Part shown: positions 3,996-50,354 of the stretch, piece after piece
Layout of the letters: each line of letters opens with the position of its first letter
How positions within the stretch are numbered: position 1 is the stretch's first letter
Sequence record: OR999189.1
Source of the DNA: Enterobacteria phage P922
Direction: 5' to 3' (one strand)
DNA: 64,000 bases
The notes under the pieces: generated by a model
The model's input: the letters and a program-made list of their open reading frames with translations, nothing else
The model's database searches: none
Told to the model about the DNA's origin: nothing
Program-made: the position numbers and the translations under genes

Positions 3996-4055
3996 AAAAT
4001 TTCACAAAATGGTTTACATACCACAAGGACCGTGGTACTATACAACTATCAACTG
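3995..4055 (+). promoter_or_regulatory. T4-type early promoter (GTTTAC -35, TGGTACTATAC -10 region)
   Basis: AAAAAATTTCACAAAATGGTTTACA...GTGGTACTATACAACTATCAACT; near-identical copies at approx 7660 and 24570. Confidence 0.55.
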
Positions 4056-4519: not shown

Positions 4520-4560
4520 AAAGTTGTTTACAAGACTGTTCTTCCGTGGTACTATTACCC
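4520..4560 (+). promoter_or_regulatory. T4-type early promoter
   Basis: AAAAAAAGTTGTTTACAAG...GTGGTACTATTACCCTATCAACT. Confidence 0.5.
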
Positions 4561-4583
4561 TATCAACTACGGAGGAACAGAAA

Positions 4584-4697
4584 ATGAAAAAGATTGTTAA
4601 AGCTATATGGAATGTAGTTATAATACTAGTAGTTTTGAGTATATTCCTAATCGTTTTAATGATTGATGTATTAAACGCTTACTTTGGATTTATGTGA
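4584..4697 (+). CDS. small membrane peptide (37 aa)
   Basis: GGAGGAACAGAAAATG start; hydrophobic core. Confidence 0.35.
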   Translation: MKKIVKAIWNVVIILVVLSIFLIVLMIDVLNAYFGFM

Positions 4698-7659: not shown

Positions 7660-7705
7660 CACAAAACGGTTTACAACCAAAGCATACTGTGGTACTATAC
7701 AACTA
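7660..7705 (+). promoter_or_regulatory. T4-type early promoter upstream of motA
   Basis: CACAAAACGGTTTACAACC...GTGGTACTATACAACTATCAACT. Confidence 0.55.
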
Positions 7706-7739
7706 TCAACTACTGATACAGAATTACGGAGATTAGAAA

Positions 7740-24569: not shown

Positions 24570-24610
24570 AACTGTTTACATCTCTGTTCTTCTATGGTAC
24601 TATACAACTA
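24570..24610 (+). promoter_or_regulatory. T4-type early promoter
   Basis: TTTTTCACAAAACTGTTTACA...ATGGTACTATACAACTATC. Confidence 0.55.
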
Positions 24611-24646
24611 TCGGCAATACTGCTGACGGTTAAAGAGGAAAACAAT

Positions 24647-24919: not shown

Positions 24920-25306
24920 ATGGAAATCGGCAAAAAATATGAGTTAAATCCACATCGTATTAAATCTTTCATTGATATTAGTTCATCAAATGCTAATATG
25001 GTCGGTATCATTCAAGAAAATGGTGGTTGGTTTGAAGTTAAATCAATATCAAGTTTAGATGGCTTTGATTATGTAACCGAAATCATTTGTGCTAATGGCG
25101 AAATCTATTATAATGATGGCATAGGTGATGATTATTTTGAACTTAGTGAAGAAGAGTTTTATTGTTTCCGCGAGTATAAAGAACCGACTTCTGAAGAAGA
25201 TGAAGTCGAAGACAAGATTTCTGGCGTAACAAAAATTCACTGCATTGTAGACGAAAACAATGTAGATGAAATCATTGAACTTTTGCGAAAAACTTTCAAA
25301 AAGTAG
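24920..25306 (+). CDS. hypothetical protein (128 aa)
   Basis: second ATG preferred: TGAGGAAAATCAAAATG. Confidence 0.45.
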   Translation: MEIGKKYELNPHRIKSFIDISSSNANMVGIIQENGGWFEVKSISSLDGFDYVTEIICANGEIYYNDGIGDDYFELSEEEFYCFREYKEPTSEEDEVEDKISGVTKIHCIVDENNVDEIIELLRKTFKK

Positions 25307-25311
25307 TTTAC

Positions 25312-25350
25312 AGTAGGGTAGTAGTGTGATACTATTACCCTATCAACTAA
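25312..25350 (+). promoter_or_regulatory. T4-type early promoter
   Basis: GTAGTTTACAGTAGGGTAGTAGTGTGATACTATTACCCTATC; -10 region flanked by inverted repeat GGGTA/TACCC. Confidence 0.5.
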
Positions 25351-25360
25351 GGAGAATAAA

Positions 25361-25603
25361 ATGAGATTACAACGTCAGAGCATTAAAGATTCAGAAGTTA
25401 GGGGTAAATGGTATTTTAATATCATCGGTAAAGATTCTGAACTCGTTGAAAAAGCTGAACATCTTTTACGTGATATGGGATGGGAAGATGAATGTGATGG
25501 ATGCCCTCTTTATGAGGATGGAGAAAGCGCAGGGTTCTGGATTTATCATTCTGACGTCGATCAGTTTAAAGCTGATTGGAAAATTGTGAAAAAGTCTGTT
25601 TGA
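25361..25603 (+). CDS. hypothetical protein (80 aa)
   Basis: AAGGAGAATAAAATG start. Confidence 0.5.
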   Translation: MRLQRQSIKDSEVRGKWYFNIIGKDSELVEKAEHLLRDMGWEDECDGCPLYEDGESAGFWIYHSDVDQFKADWKIVKKSV

Positions 25604-25957: not shown

Positions 25958-26986
<1,029 letters not shown>

Positions 26987-26987
<1 letters not shown>

Positions 26988-27847
26988 TGAAACAATACCA
27001 ATTTTTAATTAAAGATATCCTGGAAAATGGTTACGAAACCGATGACCGAACAGGCACAGGAACAATTGCTTTGTTTGGTACTAAATTACGCTGGGATTTA
27101 ACTAAAGGTTTTCCTGCGGTAACAACTAAAAAATTAGCATGGAAAGCCTGTATTGCTGAGCTAATATGGTTTTTATCGGGAAGCACAAATGTCAATGATT
27201 TGCGATTAATTCAACATGATTCATTAATTCAAGGCAAAACAGTCTGGGATGAAAATTACGAAAATCAAGCAAAAGATTTAGGATATCATAGTGGTGAACT
27301 TGGTCCAATTTATGGAAAACAATGGCGTGATTTTGGCGGTGTAGACCAAATTATAGAAGTTGTTGATCGTATTAAAAAACTACCAAATGATAGGCGTCAA
27401 ATTGTTTCTGCATGGAATCCAGCTGAACTTAAATATATGGCATTACCGCCTTGTCATATGTTCTATCAGTTTAATGTGCGTAATGGCTATTTGGATTTGC
27501 AGTGGTATCAACGTTCGGTAGATGTTTTCCTCGGTCTTCCATTTAATATTGCATCATATGCTGCATTAGTTCATATTGTAGCTAAGATGTGTAATCTTAT
27601 TCCAGGAGATTTGATATTTTCTGGCGGTAATACTCATATCTATATGAATCACGTAGAACAATGTAAAGAAATTTTGCGTCGTGAACCTAAAGAGCTTTGT
27701 GAACTGGTAATAGGCGGATTGCCTTATAAATTCCGCTATCTTTCTACTAAAGAACAATTGGAATATGTTCTTAAACTCAGGCCTAAAGATTTCGTTCTCA
27801 AAGATTATCAGTCCCATGGTGTCTTGAAAGGAAAAATGGCGGTGTAA
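26987..27847 (+). CDS. td: thymidylate synthase, uninterrupted (no group I intron)
   Basis: 286 aa continuous ORF from ATG (track start is TTG); MKQYQ...; full ThyA fold including the catalytic PPCH motif. Confidence 0.9.
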
Positions 27848-30669: not shown

Positions 30670-31400
30670 TGAATTATCAAAAAATCTATAATGACCTAAT
30701 TTCCCGAGCTCAGGCTCGGGAATCTTTATCAGAATATAAAGAGACACATCATATAATCCCTAGATGTATGGGAGGTTCTGATGATAAGGAAAATTTAGTT
30801 GAATTAACAGCCAGAGAACATTTTATAGCTCATTTACTACTATGTAAGATAAATGAAGGCCATTTTGGGCTTGCCTCTGCGTTAACGTTAATGGCAACAG
30901 ATAAAGCTGGCAATAGAATTAATAACAGATTGTACAGCTTACACAGAAAATTATTTGCTAAAGCTAATTCTGAGTTCTTTAAGAAATATTGGAAAAATAA
31001 TCCTCATCCTAAAGGAATGTTAGGCAAGCACCATAAAAGCGAAACTAAACAGCATGTATCAAACGTGAATAGATATGCATGCCCATCTATAGAAATACAT
31101 AAATTCTCATTAGATGGGGATTTCATAGAAACCTTTCACTCTATTGCGGCAGCGTCCCGGTCAGTTAATGGAAACGGGTCAAATATCAAATATTGTGCCG
31201 AGGGTAAATTTCAATATGCTTATGGATTTAGATGGTCATATCAACTTGATGCAAAGTTTGACAAAATAAAACCAAGAGATTATAAAGGAATCCGCGGTAA
31301 GAAATGGATTAATAATGGAAGTGAATGCACGCTTATAGGTAAAGATGATATTATACCGCCAGGTTGGAAACACGGCAGAATTTTAAAGAGGAAAAATTAA
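30669..31400 (+). CDS. mobE: HNH homing endonuclease (MobE-like) between nrdA and nrdB
   Basis: 243 aa; HNH motif HHIIPRCMGGSDDKENLVELTAREHFIAH; position between nrdA and nrdB where T4 carries mobE. Confidence 0.7.
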   Translation: MNYQKIYNDLISRAQARESLSEYKETHHIIPRCMGGSDDKENLVELTAREHFIAHLLLCKINEGHFGLASALTLMATDKAGNRINNRLYSLHRKLFAKANSEFFKKYWKNNPHPKGMLGKHHKSETKQHVSNVNRYACPSIEIHKFSLDGDFIETFHSIAAASRSVNGNGSNIKYCAEGKFQYAYGFRWSYQLDAKFDKIKPRDYKGIRGKKWINNGSECTLIGKDDIIPPGWKHGRILKRKN

Positions 31401-32578
31401 TGTCTACAGTTTTTAATACAAACCCAGTTGATGTTTTAAAAGAACCTATGTTCTTCGGTTCAGGTCTTGGTATTGCGCGTTATGATATTCAACGTCATAA
31501 AGTTTTTGAAGATTTAACCGAAAAGCAGTTGTCATTTTTCTGGCGTCCTGAAGAAGTAAACTTAATGATGGATGCTGCACAATTTAACAAGCTTCCTCAG
31601 TATCAGCAAGATATTTTTACTAACAACCTGAAGTATCAATCACTTCTAGATAGCATTCAGGGTCGTGCACCGTCTGCAGTACTTATGTCATTAATTTCAG
31701 ACCCAAGTCTTGATACATGGGTTGCTACATGGACTTTTAGTGAAACTATTCATAGCCGTTCATATACCCATATCATGCGAAATCTTTATACTGATCCATC
31801 GAAGGTATTTGATGAGATTGTACTAGATGAAGCTATCATGAAACGTGCTGAATCTATCGGTCGCTATTATGATGATGTTCTGACTAAAACCCGTGAATGG
31901 GAAAATGCTAAAGAATTTACAGAACTAGCTAAAGAATCTCCTGATGCTGTTTTTCGTTTAAATCGAGCTATTAAACAAGAAGCCGAAGCTAAACGAGCAC
32001 TAATGAAATCTCTTTACCTCTGTTTGCACGTTATTAATGCCTTAGAAGCTATTCGTTTTTATGTATCTTTTGCATGTACCTTTAACTTCCATAAGAACAT
32101 GGAAATCATGGAAGGTAATGCCAAGATTATGAAGTTCATTGCACGTGATGAGCAGCTTCACCTTAAAGGCACCCAATATATTATTCGTCAACTTCAATCC
32201 GGTACTGATGGCGGCGAATGGGTTAAAATTGCTCAAGAGTGTGAACAAGAAGCAGTTGATATTTTCATGGAAGTTAACCGCCAAGAAAAAGATTGGGCAG
32301 TTCATTTATTTAAAGATGGCGATGTTCCTGGATTAAATACAAATAGCATGTGGAGCTTTATTGATTACTTAACTGTATCTCGTATGAAACAGTGCGGTCT
32401 TCCATGCCCAATTACCGATGCTCCGGTTAAACATCCATATCCTTGGATTCGTGAATACCTTAATTCTGATAATGTTCAATCCGCGCCACAAGAAGTAGAA
32501 CTGTCATCTTACCTTGTTGCACAGATTGATAATGATGTTGATGATAAAGTTATGATGAGTTTTAAAAAATACTTTTAA
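31400..32578 (+). CDS. nrdB: aerobic ribonucleotide reductase small subunit, uninterrupted
   Basis: 392 aa continuous from ATG (track start is TTG); di-iron/tyrosyl radical family. Confidence 0.9.
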   Translation: MSTVFNTNPVDVLKEPMFFGSGLGIARYDIQRHKVFEDLTEKQLSFFWRPEEVNLMMDAAQFNKLPQYQQDIFTNNLKYQSLLDSIQGRAPSAVLMSLISDPSLDTWVATWTFSETIHSRSYTHIMRNLYTDPSKVFDEIVLDEAIMKRAESIGRYYDDVLTKTREWENAKEFTELAKESPDAVFRLNRAIKQEAEAKRALMKSLYLCLHVINALEAIRFYVSFACTFNFHKNMEIMEGNAKIMKFIARDEQLHLKGTQYIIRQLQSGTDGGEWVKIAQECEQEAVDIFMEVNRQEKDWAVHLFKDGDVPGLNTNSMWSFIDYLTVSRMKQCGLPCPITDAPVKHPYPWIREYLNSDNVQSAPQEVELSSYLVAQIDNDVDDKVMMSFKKYF

Positions 32579-34193: not shown

Positions 34194-34250
34194 CTGTTTA
34201 CAAGTCCCTCGTGTTGTGTTATAGTAGACTTACTGACATAACATGAGGGC
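34192..34250 (+). promoter_or_regulatory. T4-type early promoter plus structured leader (duplicate of cassette at 50004)
   Basis: GTTTACAAGTCCCTCGTGTTGTGTTATA...ACATAACATGAGGG; 28 nt identical to 50005 region. Confidence 0.55.
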
Positions 34251-34253
34251 TTT

Positions 34254-34760
34254 ATGATGGATTTACAGCTTATTACTACTGAAATGGTCGTTGAAGCATA
34301 TGGTGATACTACAGATGGGATTTCTGTATTTAAAGGAAATCGTCGAGTTGGATATATCACCGATCTTAAGAAAGATTTAGCTAAGCAAGTCAAGCGGAAA
34401 ACGACCATTAAAGAATATCGAAATCGTCGTCTTGAGCAAGCCCGTGATATGCTTCCTGATGCGGTTGAGGAGATGAAAGTCTTTTTAGAAAATCAGCTTG
34501 CGAAATATGATTGCGAAGTATTCATTAATCAGACTCAACCTAATGTTCACATTAATAGCTGTAAATGCTACATCATCGTTAATCCTTTGACGGGAAAACA
34601 TCGTCTTGGAATTAGCAATCCAAATCGTAGTGCATCAGATATGGCAGAAGATGTTGAGGCATGCTTTAAAATTTCTAAATCTCCAGCTGAACATCATATT
34701 TTAATTAACGGTCTTTCTCAAGACGATATTGTAGAGGTTATTAAAACTTTATGCATGTAA
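34254..34760 (+). CDS. alc: Alc (blocks host transcription elongation on dC-DNA)
   Basis: 168 aa; size and position between rnlA and pseT cluster as T4 alc. Confidence 0.65.
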   Translation: MMDLQLITTEMVVEAYGDTTDGISVFKGNRRVGYITDLKKDLAKQVKRKTTIKEYRNRRLEQARDMLPDAVEEMKVFLENQLAKYDCEVFINQTQPNVHINSCKCYIIVNPLTGKHRLGISNPNRSASDMAEDVEACFKISKSPAEHHILINGLSQDDIVEVIKTLCM

Positions 34761-37514: not shown

Positions 37515-37550
37515 CAGTTTACTTTAAGGTAGAGTTGTGATATTATAGCT
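37515..37550 (+). promoter_or_regulatory. T4-type early promoter with -10 flanked by inverted repeat
   Basis: GTTTACTTTAAGGTAGAGTTGTGATATTATAGCTCTACC. Confidence 0.5.
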
Positions 37551-37576
37551 CTACCAAAACAAATGAGGAAATTGAA

Positions 37577-38104
37577 ATGAGCGAATGGTTTGAAGAAGAT
37601 AAGGTTTATCGCTTTAAAGCTGGATATAAAGATATTTTTAATGAAACTTGTGGGGCTAATAAACGAATTGCCCAGTTTATTGGGGAAAATTCATTTAAAG
37701 TAAAAATAGATCCTGCGAAAAATGTTATTAGTATTAAACGCGAAATTGACGATTGCTGGTATAAAGCTGTTGATGTAATGGGCGAATCTTATAAAGATAG
37801 CCCGCTATTTTCAATTACTTATATGTCAGAATATTATTTTTTCGAAGAAGTTCAAAAAGATGACTCTATCAGTAAATTTGAAATTAAAACTGATAAAGAA
37901 ATTAAGTGGAAAGTAGTAGGTATTACTGGTTGTATGTTTTATATCTATGCTCAAACTGATACGAAGGAAGAAGCTAAAAAGAAAGCTCTAGAATATCTTG
38001 AAGAGTATGAAGAAGGCCCGGTAATGATTACCCAAGATGCCGAATTAGTTTCTGTCAAATTAGTTAAAAACGTTGAAAGTAAGGAGCTAGGATCAACATG
38101 CTAA
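37577..38104 (+). CDS. hypothetical protein (175 aa)
   Basis: GAGGAAATTGAAATG start. Confidence 0.5.
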   Translation: MSEWFEEDKVYRFKAGYKDIFNETCGANKRIAQFIGENSFKVKIDPAKNVISIKREIDDCWYKAVDVMGESYKDSPLFSITYMSEYYFFEEVQKDDSISKFEIKTDKEIKWKVVGITGCMFYIYAQTDTKEEAKKKALEYLEEYEEGPVMITQDAELVSVKLVKNVESKELGSTC

Positions 38105-40818: not shown

Positions 40819-40995
40819 ATGGCAAAACAAGCTAAAGCAAAGAAAGCAGTTGAAAAGAAAGTTGGTGATTCTAAACGCGCTGGCTACAAGCGTGGGTCGA
40901 ACTCTCGTATCAATCAAACTGTTGAGAAGATCATGCGCCGAGCACGTGCGGTTCTTCGAGATGATGCTTCTCGTTTTGGTAAGCAGAAAGCATAA
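40819..40995 (+). CDS. small basic protein (58 aa)
   Basis: AAAAGAGAATTTATAATG start; Lys/Arg-rich. Confidence 0.4.
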   Translation: MAKQAKAKKAVEKKVGDSKRAGYKRGSNSRINQTVEKIMRRARAVLRDDASRFGKQKA

Positions 40996-40998
40996 GTT

Positions 40999-41029
40999 GA
41001 GGACTCCTTCGGGAGTCCTTTTTTATTTT
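40999..41029 (+). terminator. rho-independent terminator
   Basis: GGACTCC-TTCG-GGAGTCC followed by TTTTTTATTTT. Confidence 0.65.
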
Positions 41030-41044
41030 CCAAAGATTGCACAA

Positions 41045-41085
41045 AGTTGTTTACAGTATGGTTCCTTTGTGATAGTATTATCTTA
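41045..41085 (+). promoter_or_regulatory. T4-type early promoter
   Basis: GTTGTTTACAGTATGGTTCCTTTGTGATAGTATTATCTTACA. Confidence 0.5.
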
Positions 41086-41105
41086 CACAAACAAAGGAGA
41101 ATAAA

Positions 41106-41429
41106 ATGAAAACGATTAATCTGAACGCTACAGTTAAAACTAAATGCTTCAATGGTAAATATGATGAAACTATGTGGTTCTTAATGGCAGTTGAAGGTGA
41201 TATTATTGAAGTAGAAACAACAGAAGGTATGGGAACAGATTTCACCTTTACAATTCAAGTTCATAATTTCTTTACTGGTTGGATTTATGAATTGAATACA
41301 GTAATCGTTGGAAAAATTGAACAAAATGAATTAGGTGAATGGTATTATGTTACAGCGCGCCAACGTGCCGAACGCTTAATTGAGAAGATGAAAAAGTTGG
41401 TAAACTTGACATGCAGCACTGGAAAGTAG
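41106..41429 (+). CDS. hypothetical protein (107 aa)
   Basis: AAGGAGAATAAAATG start. Confidence 0.45.
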   Translation: MKTINLNATVKTKCFNGKYDETMWFLMAVEGDIIEVETTEGMGTDFTFTIQVHNFFTGWIYELNTVIVGKIEQNELGEWYYVTARQRAERLIEKMKKLVNLTCSTGK

Positions 41430-41437
41430 TAAAATAA

Positions 41438-41478
41438 TTGTTTACTTTGGTACAGGATATGATATTATATACCTGTAC
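41438..41478 (+). promoter_or_regulatory. T4-type early promoter; -10 enclosed by perfect 8 bp inverted repeat GGTACAGG/CCTGTACC
   Basis: TTGTTTACTTTGGTACAGGATATGATATTATATACCTGTACC. Confidence 0.5.
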
Positions 41479-41504
41479 CGCAATTAAACATCTCGGAGAA
41501 TAAA

Positions 41505-41870
41505 ATGAACTACATCAACTTTGAACGTAAATATGTTTCTAACGGTATTGCAGGTTCTATTGATACTATCTGCCTTTGGAAACATCAAAATGGATCAGTA
41601 TGCGAAATTGAACAGTATATGACTCCTAATTACGTTTATATGCGATTTGAAAATGGCATCACGGTTTCAATCACGAAAGAAGGTTCTTCTTTTAAAATCG
41701 CATTAGATGATGATTTTCGTCAACGTGATTTAGGTACCCATCCTTGCTGGAACGGCGTTAATCGTAAGCTTCTGGTTAAAACTTGGATTCGTCATATTCT
41801 GAGTAACAGAGCTAAACCTGAGCATCTTGAAGCAATCTTTGATGTAGTTCTTAACGAATTTGATATTTAA
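41505..41870 (+). CDS. hypothetical protein (121 aa)
   Basis: GGAGAATAAAATG start. Confidence 0.45.
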   Translation: MNYINFERKYVSNGIAGSIDTICLWKHQNGSVCEIEQYMTPNYVYMRFENGITVSITKEGSSFKIALDDDFRQRDLGTHPCWNGVNRKLLVKTWIRHILSNRAKPEHLEAIFDVVLNEFDI

Positions 41871-41878
41871 AATAAAAC

Positions 41879-41897
41879 AGGGGCTTCGGCCCCTTAC
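41879..41897 (+). promoter_or_regulatory. intercistronic stem-loop GGGGC-TTCG-GCCCC followed by GAGG SD
   Basis: same cassette as at 3129. Confidence 0.5.
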
Positions 41898-41910
41898 TGA
41901 GGAAAATACT

Positions 41911-42198
41911 ATGTTTATGACTACTTATTTTGATACCCGCAAAAATTTCTGTGAAGTAGTTTTCTCTAAGGCGCCTAAAGACCTTCCTGCTCATTTGCAG
42001 CCTACCAGTGAATCGATTAAAAACTACGTTAATGTAGTCTGCCCTTTAGAGTTCCGTACTGTAAATGGGCGTGATACTCTAGCTATCACTAAACTCAATC
42101 GTGAAATTGACATTGACCCTTCAATTGCGCATGAAATTAATATTTCTGACATTGGTGGTGGTAATGTTAAATCGCACGGATTTCAGATGAGGTTCTAA
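41911..42198 (+). CDS. hypothetical protein (95 aa)
   Basis: ATG after hairpin and GAGGAAAATACT; the longer track ORF would read through the hairpin. Confidence 0.4.
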   Translation: MFMTTYFDTRKNFCEVVFSKAPKDLPAHLQPTSESIKNYVNVVCPLEFRTVNGRDTLAITKLNREIDIDPSIAHEINISDIGGGNVKSHGFQMRF

Positions 42199-47945: not shown

Positions 47946-50003
47946 ATGGAACTTATTACAGAATTATTTGACGGCGCTTCGGCGCCGGTTGTTAACTTAA
48001 ACCCGAAGCATAAAATACCTCAAATTTTTGCTATTCAAGCAGGTGAAGAAAGCGTGCTTCCTGGATTTAGATTTTGTACATACACCTCTGGCGGTGATAC
48101 AAATAAAAACGTTAAGCCAGGCGATAAAATGATGCATATCGTAATGATAGGTGTCAATGAAAAGCTATCATTAGTTAAACTTAAAAACTTAGGTGGAAAT
48201 CCAATTGGTGTCATTAATGCGGTTTTTGATACTGCTCTTCAAACAATGAAACAGTATAAAATTGATGCATGCTTATTCCGCGTACTAAAGAGCAAAACAA
48301 ATGGAGCTGCTCGTCAAATGCAAGTTATTGCCGACCGTTTAGTACGTACTAAAGGAGCAGGTCGATATGTTCTTTTAAAGGAAATCTGGGACTATGATAA
48401 GAAATATGCATATATTATGGTTTACCGCAAAAATGCCAATTTAGAAGACATTCCAGGTGTACCTCCTATTTCAACTGAGTTATTCACAAAGGTTGAATCA
48501 AAGGTTGGTGATGTTTATGTAGATGTTAAAACAGGTAATGCTGTTCCTAAAGCTGTTGCTGTTGCTGCTTCTATTGCTTTAGAAAATGATAAGCGCACAG
48601 ATCAAGCTGTAATTCAGAAAACTAAAATTAGTCGTCGATTAGCAGCACAAGCTCAATACTCTACTGTCGATGCTTCACTTCAGGGTGATAGCTTCGCCGC
48701 TAAGAAATATCAAGAGTTTGAATCTAAAGTTCCGGTATATAAAGCAGAAGGACCAATGAACTCCGGCGTTATTCAGGTTGGTTCAAACTTCAGCAAAGGA
48801 GCTATCGGTGGTATGAGGAGTGCTTCTCGTTTTAAATCTAGTGATTATGAACTAGAAAGCTTCCGAAATCATATTGCATTGGCCCATGCGCGTTTACGTG
48901 ATCCATCTATTAAATTACAGAGCGATATAACATATCAAGGTTCTCAAGAATATTTAAAGAATAAAGAATTTTTTGATTATAAAACTGATAAAATTTTAAG
49001 CGATCTTGCTGACATTAATATTTCTAATAGCTTTGATGTTATTAAGAAAATTGTCAATGATTTAGTTAAAGGTTCTAAAGCCACGCCAGACGAAAAGGTA
49101 GCTATTGTTCAATTTGTCATGAATGGCATTTATAAATTGATTAATGAGTCTGCTTCTCAAGCGTATGAATATGCAAGTACTGAAGTACCCCCAAAAGGAT
49201 TAACTCAGGCTGAGTCTGATGTAATTGAAGATTATTGCGCGGATTCATATGTTGAAATGAACTCGTTCCTTTTAGGTAAACCGGATTCTACTCGTGAAGA
49301 ATACATGGAACGAGCTATTAAACACATCGAGACAATGGATTCTGCCTTTGCCAAAGGATCAGTTCTTCCTCCAGGAACTACGCTTTATCGTGGACAAGAA
49401 GTTACCTTTAAAACTTTACGTCATAATATTGAAAATAAAATGTTCTATTTTAAGAACTTCGTATCCACATCGCTTAAACCAAATATCTTCGGTGAGTATG
49501 GTAAAAACTATATGGCTCTAGATGATTCCAGTACAGTATTTTCTGGTGAAGGAGAAGGTTCAGTTGACGCAGAAGATTTGATGCATATGGGCAGTCATTC
49601 TTCTTATGCGAATGAAGATGCTGAAACTAGCGTGGGTATGGTAATTAAAGGAGCTGAGCGAATCAAAGTTATCGTTCCGGGTCATTTATCAGGATTTCCA
49701 TCAGAAGCTGAAGTTATTTTACCACGTGGAATTTTGCTGAAGATTAATAAAGTGAGTACGTACATGATGAAAGAAACTGCTTATAACAAGTATTTAATCG
49801 AAGGCACAATCGTTCCTCCTTCTGAACAATTAGAAGAATCGGTATATGATGGCGATCATCTGATGGAAACTGGTGAAGTTCGTCCAATGGCTGGGTTTAA
49901 TCAATTCCTTGTAGAAGAATCAAAAGAAGAGGAAAACGAAGTTTCTCAAATCTTAGCTTCTTTGGTTAACATCAACGGAATGTCTAAAAAGTTCAAGATG
50001 TAG
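47946..50003 (+). CDS. Alt-like ADP-ribosyltransferase paralogue
   Basis: 685 aa; N-terminus MELITELFDGASAPVVNLNPKHKIPQIF parallels Alt; conserved FVSTSL and SEAEVILPRG motifs; middle region divergent. Confidence 0.75.
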   Translation: MELITELFDGASAPVVNLNPKHKIPQIFAIQAGEESVLPGFRFCTYTSGGDTNKNVKPGDKMMHIVMIGVNEKLSLVKLKNLGGNPIGVINAVFDTALQTMKQYKIDACLFRVLKSKTNGAARQMQVIADRLVRTKGAGRYVLLKEIWDYDKKYAYIMVYRKNANLEDIPGVPPISTELFTKVESKVGDVYVDVKTGNAVPKAVAVAASIALENDKRTDQAVIQKTKISRRLAAQAQYSTVDASLQGDSFAAKKYQEFESKVPVYKAEGPMNSGVIQVGSNFSKGAIGGMRSASRFKSSDYELESFRNHIALAHARLRDPSIKLQSDITYQGSQEYLKNKEFFDYKTDKILSDLADINISNSFDVIKKIVNDLVKGSKATPDEKVAIVQFVMNGIYKLINESASQAYEYASTEVPPKGLTQAESDVIEDYCADSYVEMNSFLLGKPDSTREEYMERAIKHIETMDSAFAKGSVLPPGTTLYRGQEVTFKTLRHNIENKMFYFKNFVSTSLKPNIFGEYGKNYMALDDSSTVFSGEGEGSVDAEDLMHMGSHSSYANEDAETSVGMVIKGAERIKVIVPGHLSGFPSEAEVILPRGILLKINKVSTYMMKETAYNKYLIEGTIVPPSEQLEESVYDGDHLMETGEVRPMAGFNQFLVEESKEEENEVSQILASLVNINGMSKKFKM

Positions 50004-50062
50004 TTTACAAGTCCCTCGTGTTGTGTTATAATAATTTTACTTACATAACATGAGGAACACAA
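50004..50062 (+). promoter_or_regulatory. T4-type early promoter plus structured leader (duplicate of cassette at 34192)
   Basis: GTTTACAAGTCCCTCGTGTTGTGTTATAATAATTTTACTTACATAACATGAGG. Confidence 0.55.
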
Positions 50063-50063
50063 A

Positions 50064-50354
50064 ATGAAATCTTCTTTACGCTTTTTAGGTCAAGAGCTTG
50101 TAGTTGAAGGCGTTATTCCTGCTGATAACGCTTTTAATGAAGCAGTTTACGATGAATTTATCAAAATTTTTGGAACAGATAAAAAGTTCGGAATTTTTCC
50201 TTCTGAAAATTTCTCAAAGCCAGAACAGACTGAAAGCATTTTCCAGGGTGTAGTAACAGGTAAATTTGAGTCAGAAGCTCCGGTAAAAATTGAAGTTTAT
50301 ATTGAAGACAGTTTAGTTGCTTCAGTTGCTGCTTTTATTTCATTCCGTAAATAA
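50064..50354 (+). CDS. hypothetical protein (96 aa)
   Basis: GAGGAACACAAAATG start. Confidence 0.45.
   Translation: MKSSLRFLGQELVVEGVIPADNAFNEAVYDEFIKIFGTDKKFGIFPSENFSKPEQTESIFQGVVTGKFESEAPVKIEVYIEDSLVASVAAFISFRK

Follow-up and report, generated by a model that had tools for sequence, protein, structure and literature searches.

Inverted repeats around the -10 element of early promoters in a T4-like phage: candidate promoter-nested hairpins of read-through RNA

Introduction

Why should the -10 element of an early phage promoter be enclosed by a perfect inverted repeat? The question is raised by the promoter of gene 30.7 in a 64,000-nucleotide (nt) stretch of Enterobacteria phage P922 (sequence record OR999189.1; one strand, 5′ to 3′), referred to here as the window. 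An initial annotation, made from the sequence alone, had described at least four early promoters in the window with the -10 region between inverted repeats, and had suggested selection for this structure, either as a protein-binding palindrome or as an RNA element in read-through transcripts. We find that the repeats are real, statistically robust and evolutionarily maintained, and that the complementarity around the -10 element is selected and biased toward the sense strand. On balance, we consider it probable that they are promoter-nested hairpins of T4-type early-promoter cassettes, formed in read-through RNA. They are an instance of a described architecture and, since that architecture has already been published, the present work is a consolidation rather than a discovery. 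What is new relative to the accessible literature is the prevalence of such repeats among T4 early promoters, their sense-strand bias, and the presence of versions that cover the Shine-Dalgarno (SD) sequence at early promoters.

Results and Discussion

Anatomy of the repeats

The region 40900–42100 is up to 98.7% identical (98–98.7%) to many Tequatrovirus (T4-like) genomes, with Escherichia phage KIT06 as the top match, and by this measure the source of the window is a Tequatrovirus. All four repeats can be read directly, at most 1–2 nt from where the initial annotation had placed them. Perfect arms of 7–8 bp bracket the -10 element of T4-type early promoters at genes 30.7, 30.8 and frd.1 and at the cd.2 site, and each repeat has a GTTTAC -35 element on its 5′ side and an SD sequence with an ATG on its 3′ side. 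GTTTAC(A/T), a 16–17 nt spacer and TAnnnT with a TG extension are found at 4/4 sites, and the GTTTAC of 30.7 matches the T4 early-promoter consensus (PMC1524935). The features of the four sites, all on the + strand, are:

41440–41446, +, -35 region GTTTACT of the 30.7 early promoter (GTTTAC at 41440–41445; invariant in 11 orthologues)
41449–41456, +, 5′ arm GGTACAGG of 30.7, within the promoter spacer (8/8 columns invariant among orthologues)
41463–41468, +, -10 hexamer TATTAT of 30.7 with a TG-type extension, in the loop
41472–41479, +, 3′ arm CCTGTACC of 30.7, holding the predicted transcription start at about 41475
41495–41870, +, SD GGAG (41495–41498, outside the hairpin) and gene 30.7 (41505–41870, ATG at 41505; PF06919)
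37517–37555, +, early promoter at the cd.3/cd.2 position: arms GGTAGAG (37528–37534) and CTCTACC (37549–37555), -10 TATTAT (37541–37546), predicted start at A 37553
25306–25343, +, frd.1 early promoter: arms TAGGGTA (25314–25320) and TACCCTA (25336–25342), -10 TACTAT (25330–25335)
41049–41099, +, gene 30.8 early promoter (gene product PF06019): arms TCCTTTGT (41063–41070) and ACAAAGGA (41091–41098), -10 TAGTAT (41073–41078)

The repeats had been recognized correctly, with some of their extents to be adjusted. The span 41449–41478 given for 30.7 is 1 nt short, the right arm ending at 41479; the frd.1 arms, reported as GGGTA/TACCC, are 7 bp long and not 5; and the 30.8 repeat, reported as CCTTTGT/ACAAAGG, has arms of 8 bp on direct reading. 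The right arm of the 30.8 repeat covers the SD sequence AAGGAG, which places it in a second class of sites (class B, see below). At the 30.7, 30.8 and cd.2 promoters, three of the four sites, the T4 repeats are identical to those of the window.

Excess over chance

Early promoters were defined blind to the repeats, as TTTAC(A/T), a 16–17 nt spacer and TAnnnT followed by an SD sequence and an ATG, which gave 12 promoters on the + strand of the window. For each, the stem was measured as the longest ungapped one with its 5′ arm in the spacer and its 3′ arm between the -10 element and the start codon. Perfect stems of at least 7 bp are present in 4/12 promoters, compared to 0.29 expected from shuffles (P ~4e-4), and stems of at least 8 bp with G-U pairs allowed are present in 7/12, compared to 0.96 expected (0/5000 shuffles). 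Only 1.5% of cross-pairings among the window promoters reach 7 perfect pairs. The excess was reproduced in a replication set of 26 promoters before annotated starts in T4 1–100 kb, which is essentially outside the window. Here, perfect stems of at least 7 bp occur in 8/26 promoters against 0.66 expected (maximum of 4 in 2000 shuffles), and the summed stem length is 160 against 110.8±4.6 (z ~10.7). The longest of these held-out stems are at ipII (14 bp), mobD.2 (13 bp), ipI and denV (both 10 bp) and dmd (9 bp, rising to 13 if G-U pairs are counted). The repeats are, therefore, far more frequent than in shuffled promoters, both in the window and in held-out T4.

These counts bear on the alternative that the repeats are due to chance or are a by-product of an early-promoter consensus that is partly self-complementary. 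Short AT-rich repeats are common, and consensus bases do form the inner part of some RNA stems, in which GTG pairs with TACTAT. However, the shuffle and cross-pairing controls exclude chance at the level of the set, and the arms covary, making this alternative extremely improbable. Self-complementarity of the consensus as the cause was considered separately and rejected, as armless promoters of the same consensus fold no better than shuffles.

Conservation and covariation

Orthologues of the 30.7 promoter were found at 14 IMG/VR loci via the gp30.7 protein and give, with the window, 11 distinct promoter sequences. Among these, 8/8 columns of the left arm, 7/8 of the right arm and 8/8 of the -35 block are invariant, compared to 3/25 upstream and 0/21 in the leader. 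The arms match the -35 element in conservation, and the flanks diverge. The sole arm change is a C to T substitution in one relative, which has CTTGTACC and so gains a G-U pair. In Mosigvirus-like genomes, the 30.7 stem is lengthened to 10–12 bp.

A wider set of promoters was obtained by scanning IMG/VR with the scaffold GTTTACA-N13-ATGGTATAGT, in which the promoter was fixed and the arms were left as N. At least 7 perfect pairs are formed by 18/51 of the distinct sequences found, compared to 5% of cross-pairings, and 9 pairs are reached by 26/51 when G-U pairs are counted versus 12/51 when A-C pairs are counted instead. In an ungapped alignment of these sequences, the covariation at register 0 is 0.238 against 0.175±0.016 (0/500 shuffles) and exceeds that of every slid register, and the cells with double changes number 106 against 80.7±7.1 (0/500 shuffles). 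With a second scaffold, GTTTACW-N13-GTGATAYTAT, a stem of at least 7 bp is present in 16/60 sequences that continue into a leader with SD and ATG, compared to 3.6% in cross-pairings, and in 4/45 sequences without such a leader, which is near the null. In the mixed promoter set, fixed-register covariation is modest (47% paired versus 41.5%) because the registers differ and many of the sequences are unrelated; the any-register comparison of self- with cross-pairings is clearer.

The orthologues of the frd.1 promoter carry three different complementary arm sets. The window has GTAGGGTAGTAGTG/TACTATTACCCTAT, eight relatives have AGGCTATGGTA/TACTATAGCCT with the register shifted by one, and two relatives have a third promoter-like element with a repeat of its own. 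A pair of T4 paralogues, Pdmd and PmobD.2, shows two swaps of C-G to U-A, two replacements of G-U by a Watson-Crick pair, and 0 disruptive changes. The alignment of promoters and covariation of arms that the initial annotation had proposed as a check thus reveals covariation both in the IMG/VR scaffold set and among the frd.1 orthologues, and repeats are found at orthologous promoters of relatives. As they also far exceed the frequency in shuffles, neither of the two outcomes that it had named as refuting was observed. This agrees with its view that the arrangement, and not one particular arm sequence, is under selection: the arms differ between promoters and yet covary.

One of the two roles originally suggested, that of a palindromic operator, bound by a dimeric protein of host or phage origin that would control the promoter and might, for instance, shut off early transcription, fares poorly against these data. 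The repeats do bracket the -10 element, a typical operator position, several arms contain GGTA/TACC, and how T4 early promoters are shut off has yet to be explained mechanistically (PMC2988021). Nevertheless, arm sequence, arm length (6–14 bp), loop (8–16 nt) and register all vary between promoters and between orthologues. What this variation keeps is pairing rather than sequence, and changes of the G-U type are tolerated even though they break the symmetry of the DNA. Furthermore, the repeat is missing from about half of the early promoters. The protein-binding palindrome is, as a result, highly improbable. An operator built of GGTA/TACC half-sites was also tried as a candidate and rejected, the spacing of the half-sites ranging from 8 to 27 bp.

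RNA folding and strand bias

Most of the predicted folds of the promoter regions are clearly more stable than those of shuffles. The segments folded, with their free energies and z-scores relative to shuffles, are:

41440–41510, 30.7: -19.4 kcal/mol, z -4.6, 0/200 shuffles as stable
37517–37582, cd.2 site: -16.5 kcal/mol, z -4.1
25306–25366, frd.1: -17.8 kcal/mol, z -3.5
4526–4590, promoter 4527: -22.7 kcal/mol, z -5.9
34196–34260, alc: -26.5 kcal/mol, z -5.5
50003–50068, promoter 50004: -19.0 kcal/mol, z -4.2
41049–41111, 30.8: -12.5 kcal/mol, z -1.9 (z -2.8 for the spacer-to-ATG segment)

Six window promoters thus have z-scores of -3.5 to -5.9, with 0/200 shuffles as stable. G-U pairs carry the RNA stems into the -10 region. 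The predicted frd.1 RNA is a 14-bp stem (25313–25343) with a 3-nt loop and the -10 element in its 3′ strand, TACTAT pairing with GTAGTG. The 30.7 stem ends at 41479, or at 41489 with outer pairs, short of the SD sequence at 41495–41498. Four armless promoters of the same consensus (4013, 7670, 10135 and 20685) have z-scores of ~0, indicating that the consensus itself is not the source of the fold.

The fold measure is validated by the established hairpins of T4 e, 49 and soc, which score z -4.9, -4.5 and -4.0, respectively. These belong to the T4 intergenic regions without an early promoter, of which 20% have z < -3, compared to 55% of those with an early promoter; structured intergenic RNA is a general trait of T4. 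The intergenic spaces of T4 are short, and the arms occupy the promoter stretches in which the early consensus is weakest, so that the overlap of hairpin and promoter may well be a consequence of genome compaction.

The folding is also biased toward one strand. Among 38 promoters, 17 have a sense z < -3. Folds of the sense strand are more stable than those of the antisense strand (Wilcoxon P=1.6e-4 for composition-corrected z, 1e-5 for dG). The stems of the window promoters sum to 104 with sense G-U pairs and to 81 with the antisense equivalent, A-C, compared to 69 with Watson-Crick pairs alone. The preference for G-U over A-C, together with the bias of sense over antisense, favors a single-stranded sense molecule, most simply RNA.

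The bias must also be set against a role of the repeat in DNA, in which a hairpin or cruciform, extruded on unwinding or supercoiling, would place the -10 element in a single-stranded loop and either boost or silence the promoter. Perfect repeats are symmetric in DNA, and a sense-strand DNA hairpin would tolerate G-T mismatches, such that the strand bias is compatible with a hairpin of the non-template strand. A precedent for hairpin promoters exists in phage N4, whose virion RNA polymerase uses them. On the other hand, Watson-Crick arms of 7–8 bp with loops of 14–15 nt are poor cruciform formers, the promoters have the full set of sigma-70 duplex elements (UP, -35, TGn and -10), and repeat-less promoters have the same consensus. 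In addition, the class B stems that reach the SD sequence make sense in RNA only. We regard the DNA hairpin as highly unlikely. In a related version of the idea, folding of the sense strand during unwinding by read-through or supercoiling would remove the -10 element from the duplex and act as a factor-independent off-switch. T4 early promoters are shut off ~3 min after infection by a mechanism that is unexplained (PMC2988021). Such a switch, to which we likewise give very little credence, could contribute to this shut-off and might contribute to the differences between promoters in Alt stimulation.

Two classes of nested promoters

The count of at least four such promoters in the initial annotation was correct, but too low. 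Promoters 4527, 34197 and 50004 carry stems of 13–14 bp that include G-U pairs, and their hairpins are:

4536–4580, +, hairpin around the -10 element of promoter 4527: 15 bp with one G-U pair, 3′ arm covering SD GGAGG (class B)
34202–34252, +, long hairpin around the -10 element of the alc promoter (34197): 3′ arm covering SD GAGGG (class B)
50011–50058, +, paralogous copy of the alc promoter-hairpin cassette, 5′ of a DUF5498 open reading frame (ORF; 50064–50354): 3′ arm covering the SD sequence

The gene following 34197 was taken to be alc because of where it lies and how long it is in comparison with the T4 annotation. The nested promoters fall into two classes. In class A, the 3′ arm starts 1–5 nt past the -10 hexamer and covers the predicted start, while the SD sequence is free; class A comprises 41441 (30.7), 37518 and 25307 in the window and ipI, ipII, ipIII, mobD.2, dmd and motB in T4. 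In class B, the SD sequence is covered by the 3′ arm; its members are 41050 (30.8), 4527, 34197 (alc) and 50004 in the window and regB, denV, nrdC.8 and dexA in T4.

The alc and DUF5498 hairpins are part of a 53-nt cassette, running from the -35 element to the SD sequence, which is ~90% identical between 34196–34249 (alc) and 50003–50056 (the DUF5498 ORF after alt). The two copies are 15.8 kb apart and their flanks are unrelated on both sides.

A model for read-through transcripts

The position of the arms relative to the transcription start provides a possible rationale for the hairpins. The 5′ arm lies in the promoter spacer and the 3′ arm downstream of the -10 element, which itself would be part of the loop or of the inner stem. 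Initiation by host sigma-70 polymerase is expected ~7 nt past the -10 element, within the 3′ arm. Since the spacer holds the 5′ arm and the predicted start is inside the 3′ arm, the promoter's own transcript could not form the hairpin and would have an open leader, and read-through RNA alone could form it. A transcript from an upstream promoter would hold both arms and form a hairpin with a stability of -16 to -26 kcal/mol. As a result, every gene of this kind would give rise to two forms of mRNA, whose structure would be set by where transcription began. Thus, of the two roles proposed initially, an RNA element in read-through transcripts is the one favored by the G-U bias, the sense-strand folding and the predicted start inside the 3′ arm.

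In the T4 record, the cd.2 promoter is named Pe133295. If this number is the start coordinate, the start would be the A preceding the final CC of CTCTACC, 7 nt past the -10 element. A literature search for start-site or Term-seq data on T4 returned nothing usable, and Rfam 15 gave 0 matches at gathering score anywhere in the window.

The consequences would differ between the two classes. RegB cleaves at GGAG and is blocked by RNA structure (PMC3014915). In class B, the read-through form would be translationally silent, with its GGAG presumably shielded from RegB, and expression would thereby be tied to the gene's own early promoter. It is possible, though we put it forward only tentatively, that class B hairpins constitute a genome-wide “transcript-origin” switch, which makes translation and RegB sensitivity (of regB, alc, denV, dexA and others) strictly dependent on the gene's own promoter. 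If true, this switch would help to explain the abrupt fall in early protein synthesis. In class A, the SD sequence is free and a U-tract is lacking; the hairpin is most likely an intercistronic structure in polycistronic RNA. It may act as a barrier to 3′ exonucleases or processing, or as a pause or attenuator site, and could correspond to the “stem-loop” half of a PeSL-type cassette (PeSL, promoter early stem-loop; see below).

Several points weigh against this model. The 30.7 arms are conserved but without compensatory change, and kinship among the sequences inflates covariation statistics that are based on shuffles. Perfect Watson-Crick arms are equally compatible with roles at the DNA level, and the G-U bias would also fit a DNA hairpin of the non-template strand. 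The start sites are predicted from promoter geometry, save for the position suggested by the name Pe133295. We infer hairpin formation in vivo, as well as both functional consequences, and the supply of read-through RNA at the sites is putative. At 30.8 in particular, a good intrinsic terminator (40999–41020) precedes the promoter and should limit read-through. About half of the early promoters are without any hairpin, which is therefore dispensable for promoter function. The class A role, which includes that of 30.7, is the weakest link of the mechanism and amounts to a guess, because the SD sequence is free. A single observation (n=1) goes in the other direction: promoter 20685, located before the gene at the rnh position and divergent from its upstream gene, is the only one clearly without upstream transcription of the same strand, and it has no hairpin.

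If the model is correct, the implications extend beyond the sites described here, as T4 is a reference system for phage gene regulation. With ~45% of early promoters nested in selected sense-strand hairpins, many early genes would be expressed as two structurally different mRNAs depending on the start point, which would offer a simple link between promoter activity and translation, RegB cleavage or the stability of the RNA. The principle of the hairpin-nested promoter, so far one of late genes, would reach early genes, and the PeSL stem-loop would gain an RNA-level rationale besides “terminator” or “recombination linker”. The point is also of practical interest to those who annotate or engineer T4-like therapeutic phages: relocating or removing a small ORF at such a cassette would alter the leader structure of its neighbor.

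Two transcription signals near these sites were observed in passing. A near-consensus sigma-70 promoter (41406–41435; TTGACA, N18, TAAAAT; 11/12 matches) is present in the 3′ end of gene 30.8. Its predicted start is ~7 nt 5′ of the 30.7 hairpin and would give an mRNA with a 5′-terminal stem-loop. This promoter is kept in T4, but not in Mosigvirus-like relatives, and may be due to chance. Immediately 5′ of the 30.8 promoter is a strong intrinsic terminator (40999–41030), consisting of GAGGACTCC-TTCG-GGAGTCCTT followed by a T-run.

Termination and recombination

A role in termination or attenuation, insulating each small gene from upstream transcription, has been proposed for the PeSL stem-loop and deserves consideration here. 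The -10-bracketing hairpins are GC-containing and intergenic, as intrinsic terminators are, and begin 8–20 nt past the upstream stop codon. Moreover, one PeSL stem-loop of RB49/phi1 reduced lacZ expression as strongly as rrnB T1 (PMC2839356), although this published assay cannot distinguish termination from effects on translation or stability. In a scan with a terminator consensus, which did call the terminator at 40999–41020, 0 of the -10-bracketing hairpins were terminator-like, and no T-run follows any of them. Their loops, at 8–15 nt in Watson-Crick terms, and their lack of a U-tract also set them apart from intrinsic terminators. The class B stems end at the SD sequence, which fits translational occlusion better than termination. 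Insulation by termination is, in our view, decidedly unlikely. The intrinsic terminator as such was ruled out by the lack of a U-tract, the sequences past the arms at the three class A sites being gcaattaa, aaaacaaa and tcaactaa.

A second alternative from the PeSL model is that the cassette is a linker or target for recombination at the DNA level, a mobile module of promoter and stem-loop whose conserved sequences mediate exchange, insertion and deletion of small ORFs. The hairpin would then be kept for recombination, or be recognized by a recombination protein. Indels do map exactly to the cassettes. The frd.1 cassette (25306–25352) is wholly absent from T4 and from two IMG/VR relatives, where unrelated sequence extends up to the junction at CTAAGGAG; past the cd.2-site promoter comes a 175-aa ORF, whereas in T4 this promoter is directly followed by cd.2; and the 53-nt cassette of the alc and DUF5498 promoters is shared between unrelated flanks. 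Evidence for mini-circles and shuffling has been published for PeSLs (PMC2839356, PMC4122927). Homologous exchange, however, needs shared sequence and not intramolecular complementarity, and within the cassette it is the arms that are shared least. Nor would a role in duplex DNA predict compensatory changes, a tolerance specific to G-U, or the bias of sense over antisense. We consider recombination unlikely to be what maintains the repeats; it is compatible with hairpins formed in read-through RNA and not exclusive of them.

Relation to known systems

PeSLs were defined in RB49/phi1 as strong early promoters with stem-loops, some of which overlap the -10 element, and a role in modular shuffling was proposed for them (Arbiol et al. 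2010, PMC2839356). They were later extended to T4/PST, with the stem-loops drawn just upstream of the promoter and with a promoter consensus of TTTACW-N17-TAYWAT (Comeau et al. 2014, PMC4122927), which the window sites match. Similarities to the present sites are extensive. In both, a strong early promoter of the sigma-70 type, with AT-rich sequence upstream, is joined to a stem-loop and followed by an SD sequence and a small ORF, and both are concentrated among small non-essential genes. Both are associated with indels or ORF swaps between close relatives, which in the window are seen at frd.1, the cd.2 site and the duplicated 53-nt cassette. In both, a stable stem-loop is located in or next to the promoter, the class A sites of the window having folds of -16.5 to -19.4 kcal/mol (z -3.5 to -4.6). 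The terminator at 40999–41030 together with the 30.8 promoter corresponds to the layout drawn for T4/PST, with the stem-loop just upstream.

Differences are also evident. The stems of RB49/phi1 typically pair a G-run with a C-run, in contrast to the mixed-sequence, promoter-specific arms of the window. The T4/PST study does not contain the -10-bracketing or SD-covering versions seen here (PMC4122927), and the standard descriptions of T4 early promoters that were consulted list only UP, -35, TGn and -10 elements plus “additional regions of consensus”. Finally, the published role is that of a terminator or attenuator and recombination linker, whereas the absence of a U-tract, the G-U bias and the predicted start of the present sites point to a hairpin specific to read-through RNA.

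Hairpins that sequester the ribosome-binding site and have a late or middle promoter nested inside are known in T4 from e, soc, 49, 39, 25, 26, I-TevI/II/III and segB, and the known cases are described as all late genes (PMC2988022). As in the e/soc/49/I-TevI type, the promoters described here are inside a predicted RNA hairpin of which upstream transcripts would have both arms and those begun at the nested promoter would be without the 5′ arm, and the class B 3′ arm covers the SD sequence as in the late cases. In contrast, the nested promoter is here an early one, so that translation would be restricted to the first minutes of infection rather than delayed. The SD sequence is also outside the hairpin at 41441, 37518 and 25307, and inside it at 41050, 4527, 34197 and 50004.

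PeSL-like elements with T4 early promoters and AT-richer stem-loops of variable size have been described at the internal protein (IP) loci of T-even phages (Repoila et al. 1994, as cited in PMC2839356). The strongest held-out class A repeats are at these loci (ipI, 10 bp; ipIII, 8 bp; ipII, 14 bp). As cited there, the elements were presented for two polymorphic loci as shuffling signals, and not as genome-wide features or as sense-strand RNA.

Gene setting and additional observations

The window has a T4-like gene order which, in the direction of early transcription, reads 32, frd.3–frd, td, nrdA, nrdB, denA, rnlA, alc, pseT, cd, 31, rIII and 30.9–30.1. Pfam identifies the ORF after the 41441 promoter as gp30.7 (PF06919) and that after the 41050 promoter as gp30.8 (PF06019). 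The genes 3′ of the four sites are 30.7, 30.8, frd.1 and the 175-aa ORF, each in a cluster of small ORFs. ORFs of the size of td (26975–27847) and nrdB (31364–32578) appear uninterrupted, in contrast to T4, in which these are two-piece genes with the I-TevI and I-TevIII introns; judged by ORF size alone and not by homology, both introns are probably absent from the window phage.

A block immediately after the -10 element, TACTAT-ACAACTATCAAC or TACTAT-TACCCTATCAAC, is common to several early promoters (4036–4053, 7693–7710, 24598–24612, 4550–4567 and 25330–25347) and carries the consensus on into the initially transcribed region. Where the block has the ACAACTATCAAC form, the promoter has no 5′ arm complementary to it.

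The T4 RefSeq record (NC_000866.4) annotates 133300–133313 as a misc_feature, [quoted passage not shown]. The annotated 14 nt coincide exactly with the loop, including the -10 element, between GGTAGAG and CTCTACC, and are orthologous to 37535–37548 of the window. The correction implies that an earlier T4 sequence had the -10 element flipped between the repeats, either as a sequencing artefact or by inversion in a clone of a toxic promoter. An invertible promoter found no support: a context-aware search for GTTTAC with a reversed -10 element in 1.9 Mb of loci found one armless chance match, compared to 215 forward promoters. An IMG/VR scan with the inverted sequence was uninformative, because the pattern is the reverse complement of the normal site. 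The matches of the 30.7 type all keep the orientation of the loop.

The 175-aa ORF (37577–38104), which has no Pfam match, is directly 3′ of the cd.2-site promoter-hairpin, the place of cd.2 in T4. The two leaders part just 5′ of the ATG, where aaatgaggaaa is followed by ttgaaATG in the window and by acaaaATG in T4, which marks an insertion at the cassette boundary.

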